A DNA stretch of 64,000 nt from an uncultured Solirubrobacterales bacterium (GCA_963816975.1 CAWFMD010000001.1:223479-287478); one strand, 5' to 3'; numbered from the stretch's first letter, positions 2,034-54,336 are shown. The notes: a model not told the origin generated them from the sequence alone. Translations and numbers: made by a program.

Positions 2034-3410
2034 ATGGGCATCACCGTCATAGAGGGGCGCCGGGACGAGCGCCGCAGGGTGCTGATCGCCGGCGGCGGCA
2101 TCGCCGCCGCCGAGACGTTGCTCGCCCTGCATGCGCTGGCGCCGTCGCGTGTGTCCGTCGAGCTGCTCGCCCCGGACCCCGACTTCACCTACCGTCCGTT
2201 GTCGGTCGGTGAGCCGTTCAAGCGCGCCTCGACCAAGCGCCTGCCGTTGGCCGATGTGGCGGCCGAGCATGGTGCGCGTTACCAACGCGCCGCGCTCGCA
2301 CGGGTGGATTCAGAGGATCGGGTCGTGCAGACCACAGCCGGCGAAGAGCTGGGATACGACTTCCTGGTCCTGGCGATCGGTACCCGGGCAACCGTGGCGC
2401 TGGCGGGGGCGCTGACCTTCCGCGGACCGGCCGACGTCGACGCGTTCGAGGGCCTGCTGGGCGACCTCGAGCGGGGCGCCGTGCGACGGCTTGCTTTCGC
2501 GGTACCGCACGGCGTCGGGTGGCCGCTACCGATCTACGAACTGGCTTTGATGACCGCCGCCCATCTGGCGTCGGCCGGCGTCTCCGGAGTCGACATCGCG
2601 ATCGTCACGCCCGAGCGCGAACCGCTCGGCATCTTCGGCCCGGCCTCGAGCGAGCGCGTCCGCGCACTGGCCGACGGCGCCGGGATCCAGCTGCTCACAT
2701 CGAGTGCGCCGTCCTCGATCGAGCCCGGCCGCCTGATCCTGATGAACGGGGACGTCGTGCCCGCCGATCGCGTGGTGGCGCTGCCGGCACTCGATGTCCC
2801 TCCGATCCCGGGAGTGCCGCAGGGACCGCGCGGCTTCATCCCGACGGACCCGTCGTTCCTGGTGGACGGACTCGAGCGGGTGTACGCGGCGGGCGATGCC
2901 ACCTGGTATCCGATCAAGCAGGGCGGACTCGCGGCCCAGCAGGCCGACGTGGTCGCGACGGCGATCGCCGCCGCGACCGGCGAGCCGGTGCGGCCCACCC
3001 AGTTTCACCCGGTGCTGCGCGGGATCCTGGTCGGCGGTGACAGGCCGCTGCACATGCGGGACGGAGAGGGATCGGATTCGGCCGCCGGCAGCGAGCCGCT
3101 GTGGTGGCCGCCCGGCAAGGTCGCCGGCCTCTACCTGACGCCCTACCTGGCCGAGCGCCGCGGCGACCCTCCGCGTGCACCGCTGGCCGAGATCGAGCGG
3201 CCGCTTCCGGACGAAGAGGGGGTCGATCAGGCGGGTGTGCTGGATCTGACCCTGGCCGCAGCCGATGCGAGCGCACGCTCGGAGGACTTCGAAGGAGCCC
3301 TGCGCTGGCTCGATGCCGCCGAGCAGCTGAACGTCGTCCTGCCGATCGAATACGCGCGCAGGCGCCGCACGTGGAATGTTGCGATGGCGGAGCAACGGCT
3401 GGAGCGCTAG
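2034..3410 (+). CDS. FAD-dependent pyridine nucleotide-disulfide oxidoreductase (SQR/NDH-2-like)
   Basis: Rossmann motif LIAGGGIAAAE at the N-terminus and VYAAGDAT near the C-terminal FAD site. The ATG lies 1 nt after the upstream stop. Confidence 0.8.
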   Translation: MGITVIEGRRDERRRVLIAGGGIAAAETLLALHALAPSRVSVELLAPDPDFTYRPLSVGEPFKRASTKRLPLADVAAEHGARYQRAALARVDSEDRVVQTTAGEELGYDFLVLAIGTRATVALAGALTFRGPADVDAFEGLLGDLERGAVRRLAFAVPHGVGWPLPIYELALMTAAHLASAGVSGVDIAIVTPEREPLGIFGPASSERVRALADGAGIQLLTSSAPSSIEPGRLILMNGDVVPADRVVALPALDVPPIPGVPQGPRGFIPTDPSFLVDGLERVYAAGDATWYPIKQGGLAAQQADVVATAIAAATGEPVRPTQFHPVLRGILVGGDRPLHMRDGEGSDSAAGSEPLWWPPGKVAGLYLTPYLAERRGDPPRAPLAEIERPLPDEEGVDQAGVLDLTLAAADASARSEDFEGALRWLDAAEQLNVVLPIEYARRRRTWNVAMAEQRLER

Positions 3411-3412
3411 CG

Positions 3413-5754
3413 GTGGCGCTGCCGCTCGAGCATTGCGCGGACCTGCCGGCAGCGCGCGTCGGAGGCAAGGCGCAGATGCTCGGCGCCGCGCTGCGCGCGG
3501 GGTTTCCCGTCCCACCGGGGGTGCTGATCGAGCCCGGCGAAGCGGTCGACGCGTCCGCAGTGGTCGCCGCCCTCGGGGCAGGGCCGTTCGCCGTGCGTTC
3601 CTCCTCCCCCCACGAGGACGGCTCCCGTGCCTCTTGGGCGGGGCAGTTCGCGACACATCTGTGGGTCGAGGTGGGTGCGCTGCCGGGGGCAGTCGAGGAC
3701 GTGCGCGCCTCCGGCGCCGGTGCGGCGGCGCGGGCTTATGGCGGCCATTCGAAGGCGATCCCCGCACTCGTACAGCCGATCGTGGCAGCCGATGCAGCCG
3801 GGGTGATGTTCACGATCGATCCGCGCGACGGGCGCGATGACCGCTGCGTGGTCGAAGCCGTGGCGGGGCTCGGCGACCCGCTGGCGGACGGGCGGGCCGA
3901 GCCGGCGCGGTTCCTCGTGGACGCGGGCTCGGAGCGGCTGCTCGAAGCGGAGCACCCCGCGGCGGCCGGCATCGACAGCGAGCGCGTGTGCGAGGTTGTG
4001 GCCCTCGGGCTACGGGTGTCCGAATGGAGGGGTGAGCCGCTCGACATCGAGTGGGCATGGGCGCTCGACCGTCCGTGGCTTCTGCAGGCCCGGCCGATCA
4101 CCGCCGCATCGTGGACGCCCGCCGCCGGGCAGTGGACCGCGGCGAACTTCAAAGAGGTGATGCCGGGCGTGGTGACGCCCCTGACGGCGTCGATGAGCCT
4201 CGAGCACGACTTCCCGCGCGCCACCAGCGACTTCGCCGCGGACCTCGGGTTGATCAAGCGGGGCGCACGCGTTACGGAGGGCCGCTTGTTCTACGGCCAC
4301 GCGTACTGGCGCGTCGACACGGTGAAAGACACGATGCTGCGGCTCCCCGGCTTCCGCGAGCGCGCGTTCGACACGACGATCGGCATCGCGGCCGCATATG
4401 AGGGCGACGGGCGGACGGCGGGGATGACCCCGAGCACGCTGCGGCACGGGCTGCCTGCGCTGCGCGCACTGCGGCGGGCGTACCGTCAGGACGGACCCGC
4501 AGCCGGCCGCTACCGGGATGCCTTTGCCGCCGAGGAGGCGGAGTGGCTCGCGCTCGGCTGGCGCTCGATCTCGGATCAGGAACTGACGGCCCGGGTGCAG
4601 GCCGCGGTTGAACAACACTGGCGCACGAACCGCTGGGCGATGCGGGTCTCCTTTCTCTCCGAGCAGGCGCAGGACGACCTCCGCGGGGCGCTGCGCCGCG
4701 TCCGCGGACTCGACCCGCCGCCCTGCGAGGGCCTGTTGCTGGCCGGGCTCGAGGAGCTCGCGACAGGGCGGCCCGTGCGGGAGCTGGCGCGGCTCGCCGC
4801 GCGCCACCGTGGGCTGCGCGAGGAGGTGCTGGCCGCCGACCGCATGGAGGCCCTGCCCGCGGCGGTGCGGACCGACTTCTCCGTGCTTGTCGCGCGGCAC
4901 GGCCACATGGCCGAGGCCGACGAGGAGCTCTCGCAGCCGCGCTGGGACGAGGACCCGAGCATCCCGCTCGCACTGCTGAAAGCCGCGATCCGCGCCGAAG
5001 ACGCACGCCCCCACACCGACGGCGCACCGCTCATGCCCGACCGTGAAGCTGAGGAGCGCCGAGTACTCGGCGCCGCCGGCCGGCGGCGCCGGTCGCTGCG
5101 CCGCAAGCTCGCGCTGGCACGCAGCTACGCGTGGTGGCGTGAGGAACTGCGGGACGTGCTCACACGCACGAACCGGCTCACCCGCCGCGCGTTCCTGGCG
5201 CTCGGCGAGCGCTGGGTCGAGCGGGGCCTGATCGAAGACCCCGCGGACGTCTTCTGGATGAAGGCCGACGAGGTGACCGCCGTGCTCGGCGGCGAGCTCG
5301 ACCTCCACGACCTGGCCGCTCTGGTACCGGAACGCCGCCGTCACGCGGACCGCTTTCGCCGCTGGCGCCCGCCGGAGACGCTGGGCGCGCCCCCCGCGCG
5401 TTGCCCGCACCTCCCGGCGGCGGCCGCGCGCTCGCCGGAACCGCATGCTCGCCGGGCATCGCCGAGGGACCGGTTTGCGTGCTGCGCTCACTTGACCAGG
5501 CGGCGGCCGTGGCGCCCGGATCGATCTTGGTGCTCGAGTACTCGAATCCCGGCTGGACGCCGGTCTACAACGTTGCAGCCGGGCTCGTCACCGAGGAGGG
5601 AGGGCTGCTCTCGCACGGCTCGATCGTGGCGCGCGAGCGCGGCCTGCCGGCGGTCATCCAGGTACGCGACGCGACACGCTTGCTGCACGACGGGCAGCGC
5701 GTGCGCATCGACGGGGACCGGGGCAGCGTGCTGGTGCTGGACGCAGGCCGATGA
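3413..5754 (+). pseudogene. PEP-utilising enzyme with ATP-grasp PEP/pyruvate-binding domain plus swivel phospho-His domain (PpsA/rifampin-phosphotransferase-like architecture), apparent frameshift
   Basis: From GTG 3413, frame 2 encodes RVGGKAQMLG, FAVRSSSPHEDG and MFTIDP (PPDK_N type). The mobile His domain (SPGIAEGPVCVL...GGLLSHGSIVARERGLPAV) is in frame 1 (5401-5754). The frame switch lies near the C6 run at 5390-5395. One extra C would give a continuous protein of about 780 aa. Confidence 0.7.
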
Positions 5755-5776
5755 AGCGCGACAGAGGAGGTTGACG

Positions 5777-7024
5777 ATGCAGGCGACCACGCAATCGATG
5801 ACGAACGAGGCGGCATTCGAGTTGATCGGGTCCTACCTCTCACCCCACAAGTCCGAGGCATTCAAGGCGCTGGGGTTCGGGGCCGTCCAGGGCCGGCGCG
5901 CGGGCGTGCACATCTGGGACCTCGAGGGCAACTCCTTCATCAACTGCCGCAGCTCGGGCGGCGTTTTCAACTTCGGGCACCACCCGCAATTCGCGGTCGA
6001 CGCGTTGAAGGCCGCACTCGACGAGCACGACATGGGCGACTGGCTGCTCCCTTCGCTGCGCCGGGCGAGGGCAGCGGAGGCGCTGGCCGGGGTACTGCCC
6101 GCGGGGCTGCGCTACACGTTCTTCACCCCGTCGGGGGCGGAGGCGATCGAGGTGGCGTGCAAGCTCGCGCGTGGAGTTACCGGTAGGACCGGAATCGTGT
6201 GCGGCGAGCACGGTTACCACGGACACGTCGGGTTTTCCCTCGCGATGGACGAGCACGAGTATTCACGGTGGTTCAAGCCGCTCGTGCCCGGCATCGCGAA
6301 GGTACCGTTCGGCGACATCGAGGCGATCGACCGCGCCGTGGGACACGACACGGCGGCCGTGTGCCTGGAAACGATCCAAGCGACCGCCGGGGTCGTGATT
6401 CCGCCGGAGGGCTATCTCGAGCACGTACGCGCGCTGTGCGATGAGCGCGGGGCGTTGCTGATCCTGGACGAGGTGCAGGCCGGCCTCGGGCGCACGGGCC
6501 GTGTGTGGTCGTGCGAGCACTGGGGCGTCACGCCCGACCTGCTCGTGTCGGGCAAAGGCCTTGCGGCCGGCCTCTATCCGGTGTCGGCGTGCTCGTTCAC
6601 CGCGCGCGTGGAAGAGTTCTTCGGCGAAGACCCGTTCTTTCACCCGTCGAGTTTCGGCGGATCCGAGCTCGCCGCGGCAATCGTGGAGGAGGTCGCAGCA
6701 CGCGTGGCGGACAAGGGCTTCCTCGCCCACGTCATGCGCATGGGGGAGCGTTTCGGCGCCGGGTTCGAGGATCTTCGGCGGCGCCACCCCGCGCGGCTGG
6801 TCGGCTACCGCGCGAAGGGCCTGATGATGGCGCTCCAGACCCACTCGGATGAGCAGGGCATCGAGCTGGCGCGCCGCTCCATCCAAAACGGGGTTCTCGC
6901 GATCTTCGCAAACAACCGCCGCTCGGCGCTGCTCGTGATGCCGCCGCTCGTGATCTCCGAGGAGGAGGTCGACGAGGTGCTCGACAGGCTCGATGCCGCG
7001 CTGACCGGAATGGTCGGCGGCTGA
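5777..7024 (+). CDS. Class III PLP-dependent aminotransferase
   Basis: LILDEVQAGLGRTGRVW and the SGKGLAAG lysine motif. RBS GAGGAGG lies 6 nt upstream of the ATG. Length is 415 aa. Confidence 0.9.
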   Translation: MQATTQSMTNEAAFELIGSYLSPHKSEAFKALGFGAVQGRRAGVHIWDLEGNSFINCRSSGGVFNFGHHPQFAVDALKAALDEHDMGDWLLPSLRRARAAEALAGVLPAGLRYTFFTPSGAEAIEVACKLARGVTGRTGIVCGEHGYHGHVGFSLAMDEHEYSRWFKPLVPGIAKVPFGDIEAIDRAVGHDTAAVCLETIQATAGVVIPPEGYLEHVRALCDERGALLILDEVQAGLGRTGRVWSCEHWGVTPDLLVSGKGLAAGLYPVSACSFTARVEEFFGEDPFFHPSSFGGSELAAAIVEEVAARVADKGFLAHVMRMGERFGAGFEDLRRRHPARLVGYRAKGLMMALQTHSDEQGIELARRSIQNGVLAIFANNRRSALLVMPPLVISEEEVDEVLDRLDAALTGMVGG

Positions 7025-20860: not shown

Positions 20861-22354
20861 ATGACCGTCACCGCCCCGCCCGACTCGCTCTCCGACGCGG
20901 CTCGTCGCTTCCTCGAGGGCCCGAAGCAGCTGCTGATCGGTGGCGCGTGGACCGCGGCCGCGGACGGCCGCACCTTCGAGTCGATCGACCCCGCGACCGG
21001 CGAGGCGATCGCCGAGGTCGCGCAGGGGGGCGCCGCGGACGTCGACGCCGCGGTGCAGGCCGCGCGCGCCGCCTACGAGGACGGGAGCCCGTGGCGCACA
21101 CTGAACGCGGGCGCGCGCGGGCAGCTGCTGAACGTCCTCGCCGACCTGGTGGACGAGCACGCGCAGGAGCTCGCCGAGCTCGAGTCGCTCGACAACGGCA
21201 AGCCGGTCACCTATGCGCGCACGATCGACGTCGGGCTCACCTCCTCCCACTTCCGCTACTTCGCCGGTTGGCCGACCAAGATCGAGGGCGAGGTGATCCC
21301 GGTCACCGGAGGTGACGGGATGCTCGTCTATACGCGCAGGGAGCCGGTCGGCGTCGCGGGCCAGATCATTCCCTGGAACTTCCCGCTGATGATGGCCGCG
21401 TGGAAGCTGGCGCCGGCGCTCGCGGCCGGCTGCACGGCGGTGCTGAAGCCCGCGGAGCAGACGCCGCTGACGGCGCTGCGGCTCGGCGAGCTGGCGCTCG
21501 AGGCGGGAATCCCGGCGGGCGTGGTGAACGTCGTGACGGGCGACGGGGAGACCGGCGCGGCACTCGTCGACCACCCGGGCGTGGACAAGCTCTCGTTCAC
21601 CGGCTCGACCGCTGTCGGGCGCGAGATCGGCGAGCGGGCGGGCCGCGCACTGAAGCGCGTGACGCTGGAGCTGGGCGGCAAGTCGCCCAACATCATCCTG
21701 CCGGATGCCAACCTGAAGGCCGCGATCGGCGGCTCGTTCCAGGGGATCTACTTCAACACGGGCCAGGCGTGCAACGCGGGCTCGCGGCTGTTCGTGCACA
21801 AGGACCAGTTCGACGATGTCGTGTCCGCCCTCGCGGAGCGCGCCCCGAAGATGAAGATGGGCCCGGGGCTCGCGCCGGACACGCAGCTCGGTCCGGTCGT
21901 GTCCGCCGAGCAGCTCGAACGCGTGACGGGATACATCGAGCGGGGCAAGGCAGAAGGCGCGGAGCTGGTCACAGGTGGCGGCGGGCGCAGCCCCGGCTAC
22001 TTCGTCGAGCCCACGCTGTTCACCACAACCTCCGACGACATCGCGATCACGCGCGAGGAGATCTTCGGCCCGGTGCTCGTCGCACAGCCCTACGACTCGA
22101 TCGAGGAGGTCGCGCATCGCGCGAACGACACCGAGTACGGGCTCGCGGCAGGGGTGTGGACGCGCGACATCGGGAGCGCGCACCGCCTCGCCGGGCTGCT
22201 GCGCGCCGGCACCGTGTACGTGAACGTGTGGGGCCTGACGGACCCCGCGGCGCCGTTTGGGGGGTTCAAGGCTTCGGGGATCGGCCGGGAGCACGGCCGC
22301 GCGGGACTCGAGGAGTACCTCGAGACGAAGACCGTCTGGACCAGCCTCAGTTGA
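20861..22354 (+). CDS. NAD(P)-dependent aldehyde dehydrogenase
   Basis: ELGGKSP, the catalytic Cys in GQACNAGSR, and EEIFGPV. Confidence 0.95.
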   Translation: MTVTAPPDSLSDAARRFLEGPKQLLIGGAWTAAADGRTFESIDPATGEAIAEVAQGGAADVDAAVQAARAAYEDGSPWRTLNAGARGQLLNVLADLVDEHAQELAELESLDNGKPVTYARTIDVGLTSSHFRYFAGWPTKIEGEVIPVTGGDGMLVYTRREPVGVAGQIIPWNFPLMMAAWKLAPALAAGCTAVLKPAEQTPLTALRLGELALEAGIPAGVVNVVTGDGETGAALVDHPGVDKLSFTGSTAVGREIGERAGRALKRVTLELGGKSPNIILPDANLKAAIGGSFQGIYFNTGQACNAGSRLFVHKDQFDDVVSALAERAPKMKMGPGLAPDTQLGPVVSAEQLERVTGYIERGKAEGAELVTGGGGRSPGYFVEPTLFTTTSDDIAITREEIFGPVLVAQPYDSIEEVAHRANDTEYGLAAGVWTRDIGSAHRLAGLLRAGTVYVNVWGLTDPAAPFGGFKASGIGREHGRAGLEEYLETKTVWTSLS

Positions 22355-22506
22355 AGCGCGGCATCGTCGCGGAGCAACCGGTGTGCGCGGGCTGCGAGGC
22401 GCCCGGGCAGCGTCTCGGGAAGAAGTGCCCGCGGTGCGGTCGCCGCTACTGGGGGGGCGGACTGTGGCGGCTGCTGTTCGGCGGCGGGCCGCGCGTCAAG
22501 CACTGA
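22351..22506 (+). CDS. Candidate small zinc-ribbon protein (51 aa)
   Basis: TTG overlaps the ALDH stop (TTGA). CAGC-x10-CPRC motif. Third-position GC is very high in an otherwise intergenic gap. The 3' end overlaps arsC by 11 nt. Confidence 0.4.
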   Translation: MKRGIVAEQPVCAGCEAPGQRLGKKCPRCGRRYWGGGLWRLLFGGGPRVKH

Positions 22507-22888
22507 GCTCGCCCAGGAGCTCCTCTACCCGCACGGAGATGTCGTCGCGGATGCGGCGCACCTCCTCCAGCGGCCGCCCCTTTGGATCGGGCAGGTCCCA
22601 GTCGATGTAGCGCCTGCCCGGGATGTAGGGGCATTCGTCGCCGCAGCCCATCGTGACCACGACGTCAGCCCATTGCGCGAGCTCGTCGGTCAGCCCCTGC
22701 GGCACCCGCCCGGACACGTCAAGGTCGAGCTCGCGCAGCACCTCGACGACCTCGGGGTGCACGCGCTCACCGGGGGTCGTCCCGGCCGAGCGCGCCTCGT
22801 GCACCCCGCCGGCCACGCGCTCGAACAGCGCCTCGCTGATCTGGGAGCGGCCCGCGTTGTGCAGGCAGACGAACAGCACGCGCGCCAT
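22496..22888 (-). CDS. arsC: Arsenate reductase, LMW-PTP type
   Basis: The CLHNAGRS P-loop (CX5R-S) sits near the N-terminus and DECPYIP follows. The ATG overlaps the upstream stop by 1 nt. Confidence 0.9.
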   Translation of the reverse strand: MARVLFVCLHNAGRSQISEALFERVAGGVHEARSAGTTPGERVHPEVVEVLRELDLDVSGRVPQGLTDELAQWADVVVTMGCGDECPYIPGRRYIDWDLPDPKGRPLEEVRRIRDDISVRVEELLGELSA

Positions 22889-23568
22889 CAGGAGCTGGTC
22901 TCGGCGCGCACGAGCTGATACGCAAGCGCGCCGATGGCCGCCCCCGCAACCGGTCCCACCACGTACAGCCAGAAGTCGCTCCACTCGCCGGCGGCGAGGG
23001 CCGGGCCGAGCGAGCGGGCCGGGTTCATGGAAGCGCCGGTCACCGGGCCGCCGAACAGGGCGTCCAATCCCACGGTTCCCCCGATCGCGATCGCCGCGCC
23101 GGCGCCGACCGCGCGCGTGTCGGTCGCCACCGCGACGATCACGAACATCAGGAACGCGGTCAGGACCCCCTCGTACACGAGCGCGGTTCCCGATCCGACG
23201 GTGGGCACGGTCGCGCCGAGGCGCGCGGGCTCATCCGTCCACAGGACCGCCAGCAGCAGGGCCGCGACCACCGCACCGGCGCATTGCGCGGCCACGTATC
23301 CGATGGCCTCGCGGGCCGGGAAGTGTCGCGTCAGCGTGAATGCGATGGTGACCGCCGGATTGATGTGCGCGCCCGAGAGGTGCCCTGTCGCGTACACCAT
23401 CGCCATGATCACGAGCCCGAACACCAGCGCGATCCCGACGGAGCCGAGGCTCTCGTCGTAGCGCGCATTCGCAACGATCGCGCCGCATCCGGCGAACACG
23501 AGCGCAAACGCCGCCAGGCCCTCCGCGAGGGCCCGCCGCGGCAGCCCCGGGCGCGCCGCAGTGCTCAC
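22888..23568 (-). CDS. MIP-family channel (aquaglyceroporin, AqpS-like arsenite channel candidate)
   Basis: Two NPA boxes (HINPAVT, MNPARS) and six hydrophobic helices. The GTG start overlaps the upstream stop (GTGA). Confidence 0.9.
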   Translation of the reverse strand: MSTAARPGLPRRALAEGLAAFALVFAGCGAIVANARYDESLGSVGIALVFGLVIMAMVYATGHLSGAHINPAVTIAFTLTRHFPAREAIGYVAAQCAGAVVAALLLAVLWTDEPARLGATVPTVGSGTALVYEGVLTAFLMFVIVAVATDTRAVGAGAAIAIGGTVGLDALFGGPVTGASMNPARSLGPALAAGEWSDFWLYVVGPVAGAAIGALAYQLVRAETSS

Positions 23569-24407
23569 GCCGCCGGGTCGAGGGAAACCCCGATGATCTT
23601 CAGCCGGCGGGTGAGCGCGTTCAGCCCGTACGCGCCGAGCGCGCCGTCCGCGACTCCGAGCACGTCCCATGCGCCCTCGCTCGGGGGCGACACGGACTCC
23701 GCCACGGCGGGGAGCAGGTCGATCAGGCGCCGCCGCACCACCTCTGCCATCGCCGGGTCCGCCTGCACGGCGTTGCGCAGGAAGTATGTGCCCCACGCGA
23801 TGTGCCGCTGCTCGTCGGCGGCAATCTTCCCGTAGCCGTCGACGAAACCGGGCAGCACGCCGCGCGCTGCGAGGAAGTCGAGCAGGAAGTGGGATGCCGT
23901 GATCCCCAGCGTGCCCTCGATCACCATGTGGTAGACCGTCACGAAGTCGACCTTTGCCTCCCGGTTGCGGGGGTCGCCGCGCAGCCGGTCGTGGGCGTCC
24001 ACCAGCGCCTCGTCGAACACCTTCCTGAAGGGGGCGCCGAGCACCTCGCGGGCGCGCGCGACGTGCGCCCCGATCGCCGCGGGGTCCGCGATCACTTCGT
24101 TCTGGAAGCGCGCGTAGAACTGCATGTGGCGCACCTCGTCGACCAGTTGGGTGGACAGGTAGCTGCCCTCCTCCTCGTCGTCCTGTGCGAGCACCAGGCC
24201 GCAGAACTGCGTCGAGATGCGCTCCTCGGCGACCATCAGCGAGCTCAGGACCCAATAGAGGAGGTCGCGCTCGCCTGCCGCGAGCGCCACCCAGTCGGCG
24301 GGGTCGCGGCGCAGGTCGACGTCCTGCGCCGCCCAGTGCGCGCGTTCCCAGTCCTCGTACAGCTGCTGCGGGGTGCGCAGCCCCGGCTGCGCGACCTCCA
24401 CGCTCAT
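23565..24407 (-). CDS. Ribonucleotide-reductase-R2-like / ferritin-like di-metal carboxylate protein
   Basis: Ligand pattern E (MVAEERI), ExxH (VDEVRH), E (MVIEGTL), ExxH (ADEQRH). A Tyr lies 4 residues after the first His (HMQFY). ATGA overlap with the upstream VOC gene. Confidence 0.85.
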   Translation of the reverse strand: MSVEVAQPGLRTPQQLYEDWERAHWAAQDVDLRRDPADWVALAAGERDLLYWVLSSLMVAEERISTQFCGLVLAQDDEEEGSYLSTQLVDEVRHMQFYARFQNEVIADPAAIGAHVARAREVLGAPFRKVFDEALVDAHDRLRGDPRNREAKVDFVTVYHMVIEGTLGITASHFLLDFLAARGVLPGFVDGYGKIAADEQRHIAWGTYFLRNAVQADPAMAEVVRRRLIDLLPAVAESVSPPSEGAWDVLGVADGALGAYGLNALTRRLKIIGVSLDPAA

Positions 24408-24832
24408 GATGCGCAGCAGGCGGGTGCGGCCTCGGCATCCGCCTGCGCGTCGTGTTCGACGTCCTCCAGCACCGTGAACACCTCCCACGGCGTGCCGTCG
24501 GGGTCCGTCACCCAGATCTTGTCCTGTCGCGCGTAGCAGCACGTCGTGTCCATCTCGTCGAAGGTCGCGAGTCCCGCCCGCTTCAGCCGCAGGCGGGTGG
24601 CGAGTACCTCGTCGGTCGACGAGACCTTGATGCCGCCGTGGTTGAAGGCGCCGAGGCCTGTGCCGCGCTCGCCCTCGATCAGCGCGAGCACGATGCCCGG
24701 GTCGTCGGGCTCGAACTTCACGTAGCCAGGGCGCTGCTTTGCCGGCTCGACGTCGAGCAACGCGCGGTAGAAGGGAGTGGCGCGGTCCACGTCGGTGACG
24801 GTGATCGCGAGGTGCGGCTTCATCTCAGCCAT
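24404..24832 (-). CDS. ArsI/CadI-family VOC (glyoxalase-fold) protein
   Basis: DTTCCYARQDKIWVTDPDGTPWEVF contains the vicinal Cys pair, and NHGG is upstream. This matches my memory of ArsI C-As lyase and CadI. Confidence 0.85.
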   Translation of the reverse strand: MAEMKPHLAITVTDVDRATPFYRALLDVEPAKQRPGYVKFEPDDPGIVLALIEGERGTGLGAFNHGGIKVSSTDEVLATRLRLKRAGLATFDEMDTTCCYARQDKIWVTDPDGTPWEVFTVLEDVEHDAQADAEAAPACCAS

Positions 24833-25173
24833 GTCGAAAGCTCCTTGGTCGCTTCGGGGATCACGTAGTAGTAGGCCCACAGCCCGCTCCGCTCGACGTC
24901 CACGAGCCCAGCCTCGCGCAGCACCTTGAGGTGATGGGAGACCGTCGGCTGTGACACGTCGAACAGCGGCGTCAGCTCGCATACACACACCTTTCCGGCG
25001 TGCTTGCCCAGGACGTCCACGAGCTGGACCCGGATCGGATCGGACAGCGCGCGGGCCACGAGCGCGATCCGCTCGGCCTGGTCCGGCGTGACCGCGGGGT
25101 GCACGAGCGGCTCGCAGCACGGCTGCCCCGCCGGGCGCTTCACCTTCGGCTCTGTCCTGAGTCCGGTTGCCAT
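24820..25173 (-). CDS. arsR: ArsR/SmtB-family metalloregulator
   Basis: CVCEL metal site and the wHTH QPTVSHHLKVLREAGLV. Confidence 0.9.
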   Translation of the reverse strand: MATGLRTEPKVKRPAGQPCCEPLVHPAVTPDQAERIALVARALSDPIRVQLVDVLGKHAGKVCVCELTPLFDVSQPTVSHHLKVLREAGLVDVERSGLWAYYYVIPEATKELSTWLR

Positions 25174-25227
25174 ATCTGTAGTGATAGCAGATTACATAGA
25201 CAAACGTCAATGCAATTGAGGTGCTTC
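25174..25227 (-). promoter_or_regulatory. Candidate ars promoter/operator region (AT-rich, divergent with the M20 gene)
   Basis: The minus-sense strand reads TTGACG-18 nt-TATCAC-7 nt-ATG of arsR, suggesting a possible leaderless transcript. A short inverted repeat ATCTG-N9-CAGAT (25174-25192) overlaps the -10. Confidence 0.3.
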
Positions 25228-26547
25228 ATGATCAGCCCGATGGCGCTCGCACAGGAGGCAACGGAGCTGCTCCAGCGGCTGATCCGGTTCAACACGGTCA
25301 ATCCCCCGGGCAACGAGCGGCCCGCTCAGGAGATGCTGCGGAAGGCGCTCGAGGCCGCCGGGTTCGAGTGCGAGCTGGTGGGCGCCACACACGACCGGCC
25401 CAACCTGATCGCGCGGCTGCCCGGGAGCGCCCGCGGAAAGCGGCTTTGCTACCTGAGTCACGTCGACACCGTCCTCGCCGATGCGTCCGAGTGGAGCGTC
25501 GACCCATGGTCGGGGGAGATCAAGGACGGGTACGTCTGGGGCAGGGGGGCGCTCGACATGAAGGGCCAGGTCGCGTGCGAAGTTGCCGCCGCCTGCAGCC
25601 TCGGCAGCTCTGGCTGGCGGCCCGAACGTGGTGAGCTGCTGGTGATCGTGACCTGCGACGAGGAGGCGGGCGCCACCTTCGGGGCGCAGTGGCTGTGCGA
25701 GCACGTGCCCGAAAAGGTGCGCTGCGACATGGTCGTGAACGAGGGAGCGGGTGAGGTGCTCGACTTCCGGGGCCGGCGCATGTACACGCTCTGCGTCGGC
25801 GAGAAGGGCGTGTTCCGGTTCAAGCTGACCACCCACGGGCGGGCCGGGCACGCCTCGATGCCGGGGATCGGCGACAACGCGCTGCTGCGCATGGTCGATG
25901 TGCTGGGCCGGCTCGACGGCCGCCAGCCTCCGTTCGATGCGTACCCCGCCGGGATCGCGTGCCTCGAGGCGCTGACGGGCGCCCCGGTCGATGACGTGGC
26001 GGCGGCGCTTGCCCAGGTGCGCGCCGCCGAGCCCCGGCTGGCGGACCAGTTCGAGTCGATGATGCGCGTGACGCTGGCCCCCACGATGATCCGCGCCTCG
26101 GAGAAGGAGAACGTGATCCCGTCGCGCTGCACGGTCCGCGTCGACTGCCGTGTCCCTCCGGGCAGCGGCGAGGAGCACGTGCGCCGCCGTGTCACGGAGC
26201 TGCTCGGCTCCGAGCGGGAGGGCGGCTACGCGCTCGAGTTCAGCGAGCAGGTCGTCGGCAACAGCTCAGCGCCAGACACCGAGCTGACGGGGTTCCTGCG
26301 CGAGTATGTCGGTCGCGCCGATCCCGGAGCCCGGCTTTTGCCGCTGGTATTGACGGGTTTTACGGACAGCCATTGGTTTCGGAAGGCGTTTCCTGGGTGC
26401 GTCGCCTATGGCTTCTTTCCCCAGCGCGCCATGTCGCGTTGGGACACGACACCACTGATACACGCACCGGACGAACGCGTCGCAATCGCCGATATCGAGT
26501 TCGCCGCGCGGTTCTTCAGCGAGCTTGCCCCCGCCGTTTTGCGCTAA
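25228..26547 (+). CDS. M20-family metallopeptidase (dipeptidase/deacylase)
   Basis: LIRFNTVNPPGNE, SHVDTV, GRGALDMKG, CDEE. Paralog of 37827-39164. Confidence 0.9.
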   Translation: MISPMALAQEATELLQRLIRFNTVNPPGNERPAQEMLRKALEAAGFECELVGATHDRPNLIARLPGSARGKRLCYLSHVDTVLADASEWSVDPWSGEIKDGYVWGRGALDMKGQVACEVAAACSLGSSGWRPERGELLVIVTCDEEAGATFGAQWLCEHVPEKVRCDMVVNEGAGEVLDFRGRRMYTLCVGEKGVFRFKLTTHGRAGHASMPGIGDNALLRMVDVLGRLDGRQPPFDAYPAGIACLEALTGAPVDDVAAALAQVRAAEPRLADQFESMMRVTLAPTMIRASEKENVIPSRCTVRVDCRVPPGSGEEHVRRRVTELLGSEREGGYALEFSEQVVGNSSAPDTELTGFLREYVGRADPGARLLPLVLTGFTDSHWFRKAFPGCVAYGFFPQRAMSRWDTTPLIHAPDERVAIADIEFAARFFSELAPAVLR

Positions 26548-26646: not shown

Positions 26647-27195
26647 ATGTCTCCAGCGGCTCGCAGATCTTCCACGCGCAAGAAAGCGGGCGGTGCCCGC
26701 AAGAAGACCGCACGTAAAAGCACCGCGCGGAAGAGTACGGCGCGGAAGTCGACCGCACGGAAGACCACCGCACGGAAGAAGACGGCTCGTCGCCCGGCGC
26801 GTAAGACGGCAGCCCGCAAGAAGACAGCGGCACGCAAGACCACCGCACGGAAGAAGACGGCTCGTCGCCCGGCGCGCAAGAAGACAGCGGCACGCAAGAC
26901 CACCGCACGGAAGAAGACGGCACGCAAGACGACCGCACGGAAGAAGACCGCGCGCAAGCCGGCACGCAAGACGACCGCACGGAAGAAGACCGCGCGCAAG
27001 CCGGCGCGTAAGAAGACGGCGGCCCGCAAGACCACGGCCCGCAAGAAGACCGCAAGGAAGCCGGCCCGGAAGACCACGGCCCGCAAGAAGACCGCACGGA
27101 AGAAGGCCGCTCGCCGTCCGGCCCGCAAGACCACGGCCCGTCGCAAGACGACGGCCCGTAAGCCGGCCCGTCGCAAGACGGCCCGGCGGCGCTAG
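26647..27195 (+). CDS. Histone-H1-like, Lys/Arg/Ala/Thr tandem-repeat basic protein (candidate nucleoid-associated protein)
   Basis: 182 aa made almost entirely of (K/R)(K)T(A)ARK and PARK units. RBS GAGAGGAG precedes the ATG, and a strong hairpin follows the stop. Confidence 0.8.
   Translation: MSPAARRSSTRKKAGGARKKTARKSTARKSTARKSTARKTTARKKTARRPARKTAARKKTAARKTTARKKTARRPARKKTAARKTTARKKTARKTTARKKTARKPARKTTARKKTARKPARKKTAARKTTARKKTARKPARKTTARKKTARKKAARRPARKTTARRKTTARKPARRKTARRR
26680..27192. repeat. In-frame tandem DNA repeats (12-15 nt base period, with nested units of roughly 45 and 75 nt)
   Basis: Near-identical blocks recur, such as aagaccaccgcacggaagaagacggctcgtcgcccggcgcg (twice) and caagacgaccgcacggaagaagaccgcgcgcaagccgg (twice). 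All periods are multiples of 3. Confidence 0.8.
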
Positions 27196-34305: not shown

Positions 34306-34944
34306 CTAGCCGCCCCGCTTCATCGGCACCGTGTTCCCCTCGGGAGGAATCGGGTTCTCCTTCAGGATGCGGGCCATGTGCACGACGTTGTGGGCCATCC
34401 ATCCGGCCGTCTTCTGCGTGTACGGATGGTCCTTGCCGCCGGCCTCGATGAACGACGGCCCGGGGCCCGCGTCACCGACCCAGTAGGTGTCCGCGTTCGG
34501 CGGGATCGTGAAGCCCAGGTGGGAGAGGTTGAAGAGCGTCGTCTCGGCGGCCGGGTGGGCGCCGTCCTCGTTGCCGGTCACGACCACGCCGGCGACCTTG
34601 TTGTACATCGGGTACTGCCCGACGTCGTTGGTCGACTCGTAGGTGCCGTCGAGCCGCTCGATCACCATCTGGCAGACGCTGTTGCGCACGCCGAACCAGA
34701 TCGAAGTGCCGATGATCAGGATGTCGGCCTGCTCGATCCGCTCCAGGATCCCCGGCCATTCGTCGCCGTCGCCCATGTCCGAGACGACGCCGAACGGCAC
34801 GTTGTAGTCGACGGGCCTGATCACGTCGCACTCCACGTCGAGGTCCTCCAGGTGCCCGATCACGATGTCCATCAGCGCCTGGGTGTTGGACACCGCGGGC
34901 GACTTCTTCAGCGTGCAGTTCAGCAGCACGGCCTTCAGCTTCAT
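34306..34944 (-). CDS. Flavodoxin-like NAD(P)H-dependent FMN reductase family protein
   Basis: MKLKAVLLNCTLKKSP...ADILIIGTSIWFG shows the flavodoxin-fold pattern. Confidence 0.8.
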   Translation of the reverse strand: MKLKAVLLNCTLKKSPAVSNTQALMDIVIGHLEDLDVECDVIRPVDYNVPFGVVSDMGDGDEWPGILERIEQADILIIGTSIWFGVRNSVCQMVIERLDGTYESTNDVGQYPMYNKVAGVVVTGNEDGAHPAAETTLFNLSHLGFTIPPNADTYWVGDAGPGPSFIEAGGKDHPYTQKTAGWMAHNVVHMARILKENPIPPEGNTVPMKRGG

Positions 34945-34954: not shown

Positions 34955-35653
34955 TCAAGAGATGACGGCGGCCTGCTCGATCCGCCGCACCAAGGTCTCG
35001 ACTGTGTCGCCGAGCGTTACGGTCATGCGCTCGCGCACCTGCAGAGCGTAGGCGTCGGCGTCGTAGCCCACCCGGCGCAGCTCGAACTCCCGGCCGCCGT
35101 GCCACAGTGCGTAGGCGGCGCGGCGATCGCCGTCGAAGGGCAGCCCCACGCTGCCGGGGTTGACGAGCAGCCGTCCGCCCTCGGCCGCGCGCGAGAACTG
35201 GACGTGACTGTGGCCGAAGATCACGACCTCCGCGTCGGTATGGGCGAGTAGCTCGTGGTCGCCGCCGGTCGGCTCGGGCATGAAGGTCAGCACGTCGCTG
35301 TGCGGCGATGCGTGGCACACGCAGGCACCGTCGATCTCGACCTGCTCGGGGAGCCTGAACAGCTTTTCCGTGTCCTTCCCGCCGAGCGCGTCGCGGCAGT
35401 ACTCGATCGCGCGCAGCATCAGCTCGTCGTCCGGCGCGTCCGAGGGTTCCTCGAGCCAGCGCTCCGTGTTCCCCCTGATCCAATCCGCCTCGAGCTTGCC
35501 CAGCGCCTTGACGGTCTCATGGGGAAACGCGCCCGCAAGCGCGTAGTCGCCGCCCAGCACGAACTGCTCGGCGCCGGCCGCGCGCGCGTCTGCGACGACC
35601 GCCTCGAGCGCCGGGAGATTGCCGTGGATGTCGTAGAGCAGTGCGCGCATCAC
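34955..35653 (-). CDS. Metallophosphoesterase (YfcE/MJ0936-like)
   Basis: DIHGN, GGD, GNTE and GHSH motifs. Confidence 0.85.
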   Translation of the reverse strand: MMRALLYDIHGNLPALEAVVADARAAGAEQFVLGGDYALAGAFPHETVKALGKLEADWIRGNTERWLEEPSDAPDDELMLRAIEYCRDALGGKDTEKLFRLPEQVEIDGACVCHASPHSDVLTFMPEPTGGDHELLAHTDAEVVIFGHSHVQFSRAAEGGRLLVNPGSVGLPFDGDRRAAYALWHGGREFELRRVGYDADAYALQVRERMTVTLGDTVETLVRRIEQAAVIS

Positions 35654-43963: not shown

Positions 43964-46123
43964 GTGCGGGCCATCTGCCCGCGGGAGGGCACTTTTCCCA
44001 CCGACATCGGCGACCCCGGAGGCGCGCTTGCTGTGAATGCTGTGAGGAACGTCGACGCCCCCGGCGCCGGCACTCGCAAGCCCGCGGTGCGAGACAGATA
44101 CCTCAACCGCGAGCTGTCGACGATCGACTTCAACGCGCGCGTGCTCTCGCTGGCGGACGATGCTGCCACCCCGCTGCTGGAGCGGGCGAAGTTCCTCGCG
44201 ATCTTCGCGACGAACATGGACGAGTTCTTCCAGGTGCGCGTGGCGGGGCTCAAGCAACAGGCTGCGGCCGGGATCCGCACCCGGTCCTCGGACGGCCTCA
44301 CCCCGCGCGAGCAGCTCTCTGCGATCTCGGCAAAGGTGGTCCCGCTGGCGGAGCGGCACGCGCGCTTGTTCGCCGAGGACGTGCTGCCGGCGCTCAGCGA
44401 GGCGGGCGTCCAGGTGCTGCGCTGGTCGCAGCTCGAGGATGCCCAGCGGGAGGAGCTGAACCAGCTCTTCCGGGACAAGATCTTCCAGGTCCTCACGCCG
44501 CTCGCCGTGGACTCCGGCCGGCCCTTCCCGTACATCTCGAACCTCTCCCTCAACCTCGCTGTGCTGGTCCGTGACTCCGCCGCGGGACGCATGCATTTCG
44601 CCCGCATCAAGGTGCCGCCGATCCTGCCGCGGTTCGTCTCCTTCGCCGAGGATCGTTACTTCACCCCGCTCGAGGAGGTGATCGCGGCCAACCTCGACCA
44701 GTTGTTCCCGGGCATGGAGATCGTCGAGCACCACACGTTCCGCGTGACGCGAAACGCCGATCTCGAGATCGACGACGGCGCCGACGATCTGCTCGAGGCG
44801 CTCGAGGAGCAGCTCGCGCAGCGGCGCGCCCGCCCAGCCGTGCGGCTCGAGGTCGAGCAGACGATCCCGCAGCACGTGCTCGAGCTGTTGATGAGCGAGC
44901 TGGAGGTCGGCGACGAGGACATCTACATGCTCCCGGCGCCGCTGGACCTGTCGGGCCTGTGGGGCCTGCATGCGATCGATCGGCCCGAGCTGAAGGACGA
45001 GCCGTACTTCCCCGTCACGCACCCGGACCTCTCGCTGGCCGAGGAAGACATCTCGCTGTTCGAGGTGCTGGGCGACCGTGACGTGCTCGTCCATCACCCG
45101 TACGAGTCCTTCACCACCAGCGTGCAGCGGTTCATCGAGGAGGCGGCTGCGGACCCGGATGTGCTGGCGATCAAGCAGACGCTCTATCGCACGGCCGGCA
45201 GTCCGATCGTGAACGCGCTGATCGAGGCCGCCGAGCGCGGGAAGCAGGTGGTCGTGCTGATCGAGATCAAGGCCCGCTTCGACGAGAGCGCGAACATCGC
45301 CTGGGCCCGCACGCTGGAGAAGGCGGGCTGCCACGTGGTGTACGGGCTGGCCGGCCTGAAGACCCATTGCAAGCTCTGCCTGGTGGTGCGCGATGAGGGC
45401 GGCCACCTGAAGCAGTACGTGCACGTCGGAACCGGCAACTACAACCCGATCACGGCTCGCATCTACGAGGACGTGGGACTGTTCACCGCCGATCCCGAGC
45501 TGGCCGCCGAGGTGGGCCACCTGTTCAACTACATCACCGGGTTCTCCCGGGACAAGAAGTACAAGCGCATGATCGTGGCGCCGCACGGCATGCGTGACCG
45601 CATGCTGGGCATGATCGAGCGCGAGGCGGCCCTTTCGACGCCGGACCGACCGGGGCGGATCATCATGAAGATGAACAACCTGTCCGATGATGGAATGGTG
45701 AACGCGCTCTACGACGCGTCCGAGCAAGGCGTCAACGTCGATCTCATCGTCCGCAACATCTGCACCCTGCGGCCGGGGGTGAAGTCCCTCAGCAGGAACA
45801 TCTCGGTGCGGTCCATCCTGGGGCGATTCCTCGAGCACTCGCGGGTCTTCTATTTCCAGAACGGCGGCGAAGAGCAGATCTACATCGGCAGCGCCGACAT
45901 GATGCCGCGCAACCTGGACTGGCGAGTCGAGGCACTGGCGGCCGTCCAGGCGCCCGAGCTGCGCGAGCAGCTGAAGCTGGTGCTCGACCTTGCGCTGTCC
46001 GACAACTCCTCCTCCTGGACACTCGATCGTGCCGGCAAGTGGCACAAGGTGAAGCCGAAGGAAGGAGAGGTCCGCCTCGACTTCCAGGACCAGTTGATGA
46101 GGCATCCCACCGCAGATGCTTGA
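43964..46123 (+). CDS. ppk1: Polyphosphate kinase 1
   Basis: RYLNRELSTIDFNARVL, FLAIFATNMDEFF and two PLD-like HxK regions. The start may be GTG 44033 instead of 43964. Confidence 0.95.
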   Translation: MRAICPREGTFPTDIGDPGGALAVNAVRNVDAPGAGTRKPAVRDRYLNRELSTIDFNARVLSLADDAATPLLERAKFLAIFATNMDEFFQVRVAGLKQQAAAGIRTRSSDGLTPREQLSAISAKVVPLAERHARLFAEDVLPALSEAGVQVLRWSQLEDAQREELNQLFRDKIFQVLTPLAVDSGRPFPYISNLSLNLAVLVRDSAAGRMHFARIKVPPILPRFVSFAEDRYFTPLEEVIAANLDQLFPGMEIVEHHTFRVTRNADLEIDDGADDLLEALEEQLAQRRARPAVRLEVEQTIPQHVLELLMSELEVGDEDIYMLPAPLDLSGLWGLHAIDRPELKDEPYFPVTHPDLSLAEEDISLFEVLGDRDVLVHHPYESFTTSVQRFIEEAAADPDVLAIKQTLYRTAGSPIVNALIEAAERGKQVVVLIEIKARFDESANIAWARTLEKAGCHVVYGLAGLKTHCKLCLVVRDEGGHLKQYVHVGTGNYNPITARIYEDVGLFTADPELAAEVGHLFNYITGFSRDKKYKRMIVAPHGMRDRMLGMIEREAALSTPDRPGRIIMKMNNLSDDGMVNALYDASEQGVNVDLIVRNICTLRPGVKSLSRNISVRSILGRFLEHSRVFYFQNGGEEQIYIGSADMMPRNLDWRVEALAAVQAPELREQLKLVLDLALSDNSSSWTLDRAGKWHKVKPKEGEVRLDFQDQLMRHPTADA

Positions 46124-46131
46124 TCTTCCAG

Positions 46132-47628
46132 ATGCTTGAGCAGGAGCTGAAGCTGTCGGTCGAGGGCGCGTTCGCCCCGGCGGTGCCCGCCGGCCACGAC
46201 GACATCTCGCGCATCGAGGAGCTGCCCACCCTCGATCTGCGTGCGACCTACTACGACACGCCGGACCTGCGGCTGGCCCGGAACGGGGTCACCCTGCGCA
46301 ATCGCACGGGGGAAGGGCCGGACGACGGATGGTGCGTGAAGCTGCCGGTCGGTGACGGGATCGCCGCCGGCCGCGACGAGGTGACGTTCGGCGGCGGTGC
46401 GCGCGCCGTACCGCCGGCAGCGGCGGATCTCGTGAAGGCCTTCGTCCGCTCCGCCGGCCTCACGCCGGTGGCTCGCCTGCGCACGCGCCGGCGGCGCTGG
46501 CGCCTGCACGGACCCCACGGCGTGGAACTGGCCGAGCTCGTCGACGACCGGGTGTCGGTGCTCCATCGCGGCCGCGTGGCGGAGCGGTTCCGCGAGATCG
46601 AGATCGAAGGACGCGGCATCGACCGCGCTGCGCTCGAGCGGATCGCGGCCATCGTCGCGCACGACGGCGTGACGCCCGCGGAACAGGTCCCGAAGCTGGT
46701 GAGGGCGCTCGGCGCCCGCGCGGCGGCCCCGCCCGACGTCGTGGTCCCGCAGCAGATCCGCCCCCGCGGCCCGGCGGCGGTCGCCGTGCGCGCCGCGATC
46801 GCCCGGGGGGTGCGGCGGGTCATCCTGAACGACGCGCGCACCCGCTTGGGCGAGGCCGAGCCGCTGCATCAGATGCGGGTCGGGACGCGTAGGTTGCGCA
46901 GCGACCTGCGCACGTTTCGCGAGCTCCTCGACGCCGATTGGGCACAGGCAGTGCGAGATGAGCTGCAGTGGCTCGGAACCGCGCTCGGGGAGGTGCGGGA
47001 CCTCGACGTGCTGCTGGAGCGGCTGCGCAGCGAGGGAGCGGACCTCGCACCGCACGTCGACGGGCTCTTGGAGCAGCTCGAGGCGCGCCGCGAAGTCGCG
47101 CGGGAGCGCCTCCTGGGCGTGCTGCGCTCGCCGCGCTACGTGCGCCTGCTCGACAGGCTGGTGGAGGGGGCATCCGCGCCGCCCCTGACTGCGACAGCCG
47201 ACCGGCCCGCCCGCGACGTGCTCCCAAAGCTCGCGCGCAGATCCTGGAGGAAGCTCGCACGCCGGGGCCGCGCGCTCCGTGACACGAGCCCGGACGAGCA
47301 CTTCCACGAGGTGCGCAAGCGCGCAAAGCAGGCGCGTTATGCAGCCGAGGCGATTGCTCCGGCCCTGGGCCGCAGGCGCGGCGGGGACGCCGCGCGTTTC
47401 GCGCGCCACGCCGCGGACGTCCAGGATGTGCTGGGCACATTGCAGGATGCGGTGCTCGCGCAGGAGACGATCGAGCGATTCGCGCAGGACGACTCCCTTC
47501 CCGGCGACGTCCACGTGGGCGCGGGCCGGCTGCTCGAGCGCCAGCACACCGCGCGGATCGGGGCGCGTGCGGACTTCCCCGGCAAATGGCGCAGGCTGGA
47601 CCGCCCCAGCCGGCGCCGCTGGATGTAG
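46132..47628 (+). CDS. CYTH (triphosphate tunnel metalloenzyme) plus CHAD domain protein
   Basis: N-terminal ExExK (EQELKL), then REIEIE. The CHAD region shows HQMRVGTRRLRSDLRTF and HEVRKRAKQARYAAE. Confidence 0.9.
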   Translation: MLEQELKLSVEGAFAPAVPAGHDDISRIEELPTLDLRATYYDTPDLRLARNGVTLRNRTGEGPDDGWCVKLPVGDGIAAGRDEVTFGGGARAVPPAAADLVKAFVRSAGLTPVARLRTRRRRWRLHGPHGVELAELVDDRVSVLHRGRVAERFREIEIEGRGIDRAALERIAAIVAHDGVTPAEQVPKLVRALGARAAAPPDVVVPQQIRPRGPAAVAVRAAIARGVRRVILNDARTRLGEAEPLHQMRVGTRRLRSDLRTFRELLDADWAQAVRDELQWLGTALGEVRDLDVLLERLRSEGADLAPHVDGLLEQLEARREVARERLLGVLRSPRYVRLLDRLVEGASAPPLTATADRPARDVLPKLARRSWRKLARRGRALRDTSPDEHFHEVRKRAKQARYAAEAIAPALGRRRGGDAARFARHAADVQDVLGTLQDAVLAQETIERFAQDDSLPGDVHVGAGRLLERQHTARIGARADFPGKWRRLDRPSRRRWM

Positions 47629-47656
47629 TGCAACCGGCGCGCGCGGACACGAGCTC

Positions 47657-48586: not shown

Positions 48587-48640
48587 CCAAGCGCGCGGCG
48601 GCGCCTCAAGTCCACGTGCCCAGCAGTCGATGGGCTCCAC

Positions 48641-49858: not shown

Positions 49859-49861
49859 CGG

Positions 49862-51456: not shown

Positions 51457-51458
51457 CT

Positions 51459-53326: not shown

Positions 53327-53334
53327 CTGTGGTC

Positions 53335-54273
<939 letters not shown>

Positions 54274-54336
54274 GCGCGCCCTCCTTTTGTCGTTTGACTC
54301 GTACACGCCATGCCAGGGTGGCGGGACGTCGAGAGA

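Follow-up and report, generated by a model that had tools for sequence, protein, structure and literature searches.

What is a protein resembling the R2 subunit of ribonucleotide reductase (RNR) doing inside an arsenic resistance operon? The question is raised by a 64,000-nucleotide (nt) stretch of DNA from an uncultured Solirubrobacterales bacterium (GCA_963816975.1, CAWFMD010000001.1:223479-287478; the window hereafter), with a GC content of about 70%, in which five minus-strand genes of an ars operon are chained by overlaps of 13, 4, 4 and 1 nt and the third of them encodes such a protein. Our results identify this R2-like protein as an offshoot of R2lox that has become an established part of arsenic operons under ArsR control in Solirubrobacterales (Thermoleophilia). 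Its gene has ars genes within 6 kb in 23 of the 26 loci of its clade, compared with none of the 57 loci of the canonical R2lox paralog, and the protein is very probably a dedicated component of the arsenic response. The operon in the window consists of the following features, given in the direction of transcription:

25174-25215, minus strand: AT-rich region 5' of arsR, read from the sequence as a putative promoter/operator
24820-25173, minus strand: arsR, encoding an ArsR/SmtB metalloregulator of 117 residues (Pfam HTH_5, 9.4e-16)
24404-24832, minus strand: ArsI/CadI-type VOC gene, encoding a probable C-As lyase of 142 residues (NF041414)
23565-24407, minus strand: R2-like gene, encoding an R2lox-derived dimetal-carboxylate protein of 280 residues (PF00268)
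22888-23568, minus strand: MIP-family channel gene with a GTG start, encoding 226 residues with two NPA motifs (Pfam MIP, 1.2e-59)
22496-22888, minus strand: arsC of the low-molecular-weight protein tyrosine phosphatase (LMW-PTP) type, encoding 130 residues with a CLHNAGRS motif (Pfam LMWPc, 5.4e-22)

The metal site of the R2-like protein is complete. The six canonical carboxylate and histidine ligands that an initial annotation of this DNA had recognized are E61, E91-x-x-H94, E164 and E199-x-x-H202, all invariant in our alignments, and the tyrosine that it had placed at the radical position is Tyr98. This residue lies at His94+4, the position of the class Ia R2 radical tyrosine, as in E. coli R2 (H118/Y122). 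Tyr159, the counterpart of the cross-linking Tyr162 of GkR2lox, is also kept and is invariant in alignments of the clade. The annotation's term 'RNR-R2-like' was right about the fold and the ligands and too generic about the family: by profile, PDB and Foldseek matches, the protein is a derived R2lox. It scores 54 bits with PF00268 (cutoff 33.6), and its best NCBIfam R2lox model, NF006200, gives 117.3 bits, below the cutoff of 194. Searching the PDB with phmmer returned R2lox structures as the top matches (7qbp from S. erythraea at 3e-23, then 3ee4 from M. tuberculosis). With an AlphaFold2 model (pLDDT of 86, pTM of 0.85) as the Foldseek query, 34 R2lox chains ranked ahead of the first RNR R2, and the template-modelling (TM) score to 7qbp was 0.83. 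Pfam also reported weak similarity to Phenol_Hydrox and AurF. When flavin or NAD(P)H enzyme folds were looked for, Pfam and NCBIfam gave ferritin-like/R2 matches only.

A true RNR beta subunit that merely adjoins ars genes would account for the above-cutoff match to PF00268, the tyrosine at the radical position and the public (JGI) annotation of homologs as 'ribonucleoside-diphosphate reductase beta chain'. Against it, the RNR beta models NF007184 and NF007186 score just 18.4 and 17.3 bits (cutoffs 310 and 237), no structural match other than R2lox is found among the best 34, and Gly168 replaces a phenylalanine conserved in all R2 groups (PMC6399176). In the AlphaFold2 model the last helix spans residues 256-272 and the protein ends eight residues on, without an R1-binding tail. 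As the initial annotation had noted, an R1 gene is absent: no R1-type large subunit was found among the large open reading frames (ORFs) of the window or among the Pfam annotations flanking L001, a syntenic locus. Taken with the linkage to ars genes in 23 of 26 loci, this evidence leads us to reject the RNR assignment, to which we give practically no credence; the R2-like protein is not an RNR subunit.

To place the protein more precisely, we scanned one genome per GTDB species, which gave 80 loci, all from Thermoleophilia and mostly from Solirubrobacterales, and compared 83 loci in all, 26 belonging to the clade of the R2-like protein (the query included) and 57 to the canonical paralog. The alignment splits these genes cleanly, with Ile64 and Tyr98 in the query and 25 other loci and Val and Phe, the canonical R2lox state, in the other 57. 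Neighbour-joining trees recover the clade as monophyletic; bootstrap values are 100/100 for it and for both of its two subclades, Cys69 being restricted to one of these. A member of subclade 2 is 54% identical to the query. A specificity analysis found 20 positions fixed differently in clade and paralog, 11 of them within 8 residues of a metal ligand.

Several of these substitutions fall on R2lox hallmarks (PMC6060897, PMC6399176, PMC7239806). Just before the first metal ligand, the clade has Ala60 where 56 of 56 paralogs have the glycine (Gly68 of GkR2lox) that is conserved in R2lox and tunes Mn/Fe selection (PMC7239806). Every clade member has Ile64 in place of the paralogs' valine, Val72 of GkR2lox, which is the cross-link partner and is completely conserved in R2lox; because GkR2lox remains able to make the ether cross-link when it carries V72I (PMC6060897), a Tyr159-Ile64 cross-link may persist in the clade. 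Gly168, present in all 23 clade members analysed, replaces an alanine found in 56 of 56 paralogs (Ala171 of GkR2lox) that is conserved in R2lox, lines the ligand tunnel and governs fatty-acid access, the phenylalanine of R2 proteins blocking the tunnel at this point (PMC6399176); the small glycine would leave the tunnel to the metals open. Tyr98 replaces a redox-inert phenylalanine shared by 56 of 56 paralogs, SeR2lox and MtR2lox. Further clade-specific states are Leu57/Met58 for Phe-Phe, Gln102 for Tyr and Tyr192 for Phe. As read from the alignment, the radical-site tyrosine is a clade-specific gain from phenylalanine, alongside the Gly-to-Ala, Val-to-Ile and Ala-to-Gly changes at hallmark positions. 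Since five R2lox hallmarks that can be tested at the sequence level failed, we file the protein as a new R2lox-derived subfamily and not as an R2lox orthologue.

A library clustered at 90% identity holds more than 3,600 relatives. The best 120 share 80% identity or more with the query, and metagenome records from JGI or ENA account for most of the best matches listed. The signature Ala60/Ile64/Tyr98/Gly168 occurs as a coupled set in 135 of the protein matches examined, and in a library at 50% identity the clade collapses to essentially one or two clusters.

We then asked whether the gene's position among ars genes is peculiar to this genome. Neighbours were called by tblastn with the window proteins and with neighbours found in the loci, and ars genes were counted within 6 kb. 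The difference between clade (23/26) and paralog (0/57) is significant (Fisher p = 1.4e-17), a value that overstates independence and is inflated because the loci are phylogenetically related, yet at least seven gene orders keep the linkage. An exact protein look-up added six independent metagenome contigs, and all six have arsR, then arsM, arsI or no gene, then the R2-like gene. The link to ars genes is thus conserved rather than unique to this genome, and the survey and the contigs together rule out a chance or genome-specific adjacency. All of the neighbours listed here were absent from L003, L012 and L015 and from the 57 canonical-paralog loci; in the clade loci, the neighbours of the R2-like gene were:

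ArsR, 66-85% identical to that of the window: 20 of 26, directly upstream of the R2-like gene in some
ArsC: 18 of 26
ArsM, immediately upstream of the R2-like gene: 14 of 26
MIP channel: 11 of 26
Metallophosphoesterase: 8 of 26
ArsI/CadI VOC protein, in the same slot as ArsM: 3 of 26
CDF transporter: 3 of 26
GAPDH: 3 of 26
ArsJ: 2 of 26
ArsA: 1 of 26 (L011, where ArsD is found too)

They are arranged in these orders:

arsR-arsI-R2like, with or without MIP-arsC after it
arsR-arsM-R2like, alone or followed by MIP-arsC, CDF or MFS
arsC<>arsR-R2like
arsM-arsR<>R2like-MIP-arsC
R2like-arsC
variants with arsJ-GAPDH
R2like alone

The order R2like-MIP-arsC recurs in L010, L021 and L083, the last of which has the identical five-gene cassette in unrelated flanks, and by gene layout ArsC is co-transcribed downstream in the window, L004, L010, L018, L021 and L083. 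Six ArsM genes that we scanned matched NF008823 at 283-320 bits (cutoff 263), and ArsJ, which with GAPDH flanks the unit in L008 and L016, scored 567 bits (cutoff 400).

The linkage extends to translation. Membership in a translationally coupled ars operon, claimed at the outset for this one locus, is borne out by the ATGA and GTGA overlaps at the two ends of the R2-like gene and, more widely, by an overlap of its start with the upstream stop (ATGA, GTGA or TAATG) in 15 of 16 loci inspected, be the preceding gene arsI, arsM, arsR or a CDF gene. Both arsM and arsI, when they occupy the slot before the R2-like gene, overlap arsR by 13 nt and the R2-like gene by 4 nt, and a comparison of L084 (arsM, 3288-4004) with the window (arsI, 24404-24832) gives the appearance of one having been swapped for the other with the flanks fixed.

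In the window itself, the five-gene chain with overlaps of 1-13 nt could be verified on the minus strand in all its coordinates and junctions. The VOC gene starts with an ATG at 24832, overlapping the arsR stop by 13 nt as in L001, L083, L084 and a JGI contig; with a start at the other candidate ATG, at 24823, the overlap with arsR would be ATGA. The junctions that follow are ATGA (VOC/R2-like), GTGA (R2-like/MIP, the latter starting with GTG) and TGATG (MIP/arsC, a 1-nt overlap). Upstream of arsR there is a TTGACG -35-like hexamer at 25210-25205, and an inverted repeat, ATCTG-N9-CAGAT at 25192-25174, lies directly against the arsR ATG, which makes a leaderless transcript probable. Related loci have a conserved CATTGACA...TTCAATCGATATA...ATG element at the same site, AT-rich and running from TTGACA through TTCAATCGATATA to the ATG, with TTGACA...ATCGATAT as the conserved form of the putative ArsR operator. 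This conservation suggests a leaderless, ArsR-autoregulated transcript. A consensus promoter and terminator scan of 22000-25600 found neither a sigma-70 promoter nor anything else, and such a scan is uninformative for an actinobacterium with 70% GC. The window is syntenic with loci L001, L003 and L004 from metagenome-assembled genomes (MAGs), and syntenic MAG loci are 80-87% identical.

Profile matches support the family assignment of each neighbouring protein. ArsR matches NF033788 at 86.8 bits (cutoff 55) and has an N-terminal Cys19-Cys20 pair (PCCEP) as well as Cys63-Val-Cys65 (CVCEL) in helix 3. The VOC protein exceeds the cutoff of the ArsI/CadI equivalog NF041414 (147 bits, cutoff 116), aligns with Thermomonospora curvata ArsI (5c4p; phmmer, 1.4e-28) and contains the metal triad His7/His65/Glu117, the vicinal cysteine pair in TTCCY and a C-terminal CC. 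The MIP protein (Pfam MIP, 202 bits; TIGR00861, 178 bits, cutoff 171) is presumed to be an As(OH)3 channel. ArsC scores 79 bits with LMWPc, and its top NCBIfam matches are arsenate reductase models, all below their cutoffs.

Arsenic need not be the target of a protein so placed. It might be an arsenic-tolerant substitute for the housekeeping R2lox, in a lipid- or fatty-acid-related role, or a ferritin-like protein that protects against oxidative or metal stress induced by arsenic, under ArsR control, and we consider a role of this kind unlikely, if worth keeping in view. In its favour, Solirubrobacterales have a canonical R2lox paralog as well, set among conserved housekeeping genes; C16/C18 hydroxy fatty acids are ligands of known R2lox proteins (PMC9314684); ars neighbours are missing from three clade loci; and three loci have a CDF metal exporter gene next to the R2-like gene. 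If the protein were only a spare copy, on the other hand, one would not expect its active-site second sphere to be systematically remodelled at positions of ligand access and metal reactivity, and the conserved translational coupling behind ArsM or ArsI points to shared chemistry. Even L003, which is syntenic with the window and lacks arsR, arsI, MIP and arsC, has the R2-like gene behind a remnant arsR promoter: the promoter and the first arsR codons (ATGGCTGTCGAT) lie directly upstream of it, at 5880-6000. L003 appears to be a deletion derivative, in which the R2-like gene may be expressed without its repressor.

We tentatively favour a function of the R2-like protein as a dimetal oxidase under ArsR control that activates O2 and oxidizes trivalent, probably methylated, arsenicals. 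The six conserved ligands lend direct sequence support to the first of four steps only, and we infer the other three. A Mn/Fe or Fe/Fe carboxylate-bridged centre would assemble on E61, E91/H94, E164 and E199/H202, in a protein co-translated with whichever ars gene precedes it. Once reduced, the centre would activate O2 to a high-valent intermediate in the manner of R2lox, which is known to perform two-electron oxidations after O2 activation (PMC9314684, PMC6060897). The intermediate could then remove two electrons from a trivalent arsenical that sits on or close to the metals, in the place where R2lox holds a fatty-acid carboxylate. The likeliest substrate, judged from the gene neighbours, would be methylarsenite (MAs(III)) or dimethylarsenite (DMAs(III)), with far less toxic pentavalent forms as products. 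We speculate that the arsenical itself supplies the electrons, and the lack of a reductase gene alongside would fit such an oxidase.

An oxidase of trivalent (organo)arsenicals fits the genomic context, in which the R2-like gene sits preferentially behind an ArsM or ArsI gene (14/26 and 3/26 loci). What the two partners share is MAs(III) and DMAs(III), ArsM making them and ArsI destroying methylarsenite. The products of ArsM are more toxic than arsenite, oxidation by ArsH is an established detoxification route, and ArsH and ArsI are the known O2-dependent enzymes of MAs(III) detoxification in ars operons (PMC7229686).

Several observations count against an oxidase of methylated arsenicals. Pairs of arsR and the R2-like gene occur without a nearby arsM or arsI in L002, L005, L007, L019 and L023, and L003, L012 and L015 have no ars gene within 6 kb. 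The R2-like protein has no conserved As(III)-binding cysteine pair of the kind present in ArsI, ArsM and ArsR. Because ArsM products also oxidize non-enzymatically in air (PMC7229686), the need for an oxidase is not self-evident, and the lack of a reductase partner encoded alongside would be a gap if the enzyme were a monooxygenase.

The pairs lacking an organoarsenical gene speak in favour of an oxidase of inorganic arsenite. Such an enzyme would deliver arsenate to GAPDH/ArsJ or simply lower cytosolic As(III), and the presence of ArsJ and GAPDH beside the unit in L008 and L016 is in keeping with it, as ArsJ and GAPDH export an arsenate-derived metabolite. The commonest enzyme partner, however, is ArsC, which catalyses the reverse reaction and is found in 18 of 26 loci, so that As(III) oxidation and As(V) reduction within one operon would form a futile cycle; we regard this function as unlikely.

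The frequent pairing with ArsM bears on another candidate, an oxygenase that breaks or functionalizes C-As bonds, either as an oxidative demethylase or as a degrader of aromatic or larger natural organoarsenicals. Ferritin-like dimetal enzymes commonly hydroxylate C-H bonds, R2lox itself oxidizes the tertiary C-H of valine or isoleucine (PMC6060897), at least three loci combine the gene with that of ArsI, a C-As lyase, and the weak Pfam similarity to Phenol_Hydrox and AurF points the same way. A demethylase and a methylase on one mRNA would constitute a futile cycle in the 14 of 26 loci in which the gene directly follows ArsM, however, and a second demethylase would be redundant where ArsI is present. 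We therefore think an oxygenase of this type unlikely. The initial annotation had alternatively suggested that the protein supplies oxidizing equivalents to the ArsI-like dioxygenase; as ArsI occurs in only 3 of 26 loci, and the gene is equally coupled to ArsM, to ArsR, to CDF or to no ars enzyme, such a feeding role is unsupported.

The tyrosine regained at the R2 radical site and the altered Mn/Fe-tuning residues raise the possibility of a radical-bearing or re-tuned R2lox. It might carry out new carbon-arsenic or lipid-arsenic chemistry on ArsM products, such as the building or remodelling of arsenolipids or other complex organoarsenicals in place of simple As(III) oxidation, a prospect that we consider very unlikely.

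With oxidation of trivalent, probably methylated, arsenicals as the preferred function, the operon probably contains a previously unrecognized enzyme class, an arsenic-detoxifying oxidase. Full-text searches, mostly outside subscription journals, retrieved no paper that links R2lox, ferritin-like, diiron or RNR-like proteins with ars, and the initial annotation, likewise, had been aware of no ars-associated ferritin-like or R2-like protein. If the proposal is true, soil Solirubrobacterales have a third, unrelated class of O2-dependent defence against methylarsenite besides ArsH and ArsI. The arsenolipid-type chemistry, if true, would add a pathway to organoarsenical metabolism and give R2lox proteins their first physiological reaction. 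No physiological role is known for R2lox (PMC9314684). In this clade, for the first time, relatives of R2lox have a functional context that is conserved and unambiguous, together with a short list of testable candidate substrates, which makes the long-standing question of R2lox function directly testable. The assignment also corrects a systematic misannotation of the homologs as RNR beta chains, and ignoring the family may bias gene-based estimates of arsenic cycling.

Other features of the loci deserve mention. Short CDF (Cation_efflux) genes adjoin the R2-like gene in L008 (5264-5980), L014 (6882-7580) and L010 (2962-3540) and could reflect a tie between Mn/Fe/Cd handling and the dimetal enzyme or cross-regulation of Cd/Zn by ArsR. 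In L085, a 372-residue MFS transporter (4822-5940), with no curated ArsJ or ArsK match, begins at the last base of the R2-like gene and may be an exporter of the enzyme's product. A calcineurin-like metallophosphoesterase (Metallophos_2) is encoded in the divergent MIP-arsC arm of eight ars loci (L009, L011, L013, L014, L017, L019, L043 at 3971-4693, and L049). The window has only a distant homolog of it (34955-35653, 33% identity), next to an FMN_red gene (34306-34944) whose product was considered as ArsH and, having no NCBIfam match, is not called so.

An R2like-arsC pair lies directly 3' of a tRNA gene in L018 (3560-3700), which hints at insertion at a tRNA site. Apparent frameshifts in conserved genes (R2-like, ArsR and ArsC) in L009, L026, L043, L007 and L011, mainly in MFD assemblies, are probably assembly errors and would explain the chimeric proteins P0140, P0151 and P0245. 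These seeming ArsM-R2like and R2like-ArsC fusions are long hits in which partial matches to methyltransferase or LMWPc stand beside R2-like segments; they are fragmentary, and in view of the MAG frameshifts (L009, L026 and L043) we treat them as assembly or gene-calling artefacts that confirm adjacency only.

The ars unit also has phosphate genes in its surroundings. A cluster at 43964-57081 of the window includes genes for a polyphosphate kinase (43964-46123), a CYTH-CHAD protein (46039-47628), a PhoU-like protein (49862-50557), pstSCA-like components (51459-54306) and a Pit-like transporter (55948-57081). Several further loci also have genes of Pst, Ppx/GppA-like and CHAD-like type no more than a few kb away from the ars/R2-like unit, and the ars-Pho neighbourhood recurs in L002, L007, L008, L009, L020, L043 and L049, a recurrence that is plausible because arsenate mimics phosphate. 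Between M20 peptidase and PadR genes, on the plus strand, a 182-residue ORF (26647-27195) is made up of little else than Lys/Arg/Ala/Thr repeats (KKTARK/TTARKK), much like the histone-like basic repeat proteins of actinobacteria; repeat ORFs of equal length are present on the other strand.

Set beside known systems, the R2-like protein shares with class I RNR R2 (NrdB/NrdF, R2c) the ferritin-like R2 fold, PF00268, the ligand spacing and a tyrosine at His+4 (Tyr122 in E. coli), and differs from it in having no tunnel phenylalanine, no C-terminal R1-binding tail and no R1 partner in the window. The MIP channel gene and arsC, the last two genes of the operon, recall the AqpS-ArsC pair of Sinorhizobium meliloti, to which the initial annotation had also pointed and which works by reducing arsenate and letting As(OH)3 out through the channel. 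Here, in contrast, the channel is AqpZ-like (NF003838, 150 bits) and not GlpF-like, arsC is of the LMW-PTP type, and ArsI-like and R2lox-derived genes are added.

The closest relative is R2lox, which has the same fold (TM score of 0.83 to 7qbp) and gives the best sequence match (3e-23). The two have in common the four-Glu/two-His ligand set with Glu first, the cross-link tyrosine and a small residue at the tunnel gate. Unlike R2lox, to which it is about 24-28% identical and whose NCBIfam cutoffs it nowhere reaches, the R2-like protein has a shorter N-terminus and carries Ala60 (for Gly68), Ile64 (for Val72), Gly168 (for Ala171) and Tyr98 (for Phe); its clade belongs to ars operons, and the order's canonical paralog, by contrast, stands in housekeeping synteny.

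In proposed function the protein would resemble ArsH and ArsV, O2-dependent ars-operon oxidases that convert toxic trivalent methylarsenicals to pentavalent forms (PMC7229686), in sharing ArsR control and an accessory role beside ArsM, ArsI and ArsC. Those enzymes are NAD(P)H flavoproteins without homology to it, ArsH being an NADPH-FMN methylarsenite oxidase and ArsV a flavin monooxygenase; the R2-like protein, by contrast, is a ferritin-like dimetal protein lacking a flavin or nucleotide motif, with a putative activity for which ArsH would be the nearest functional analogue.

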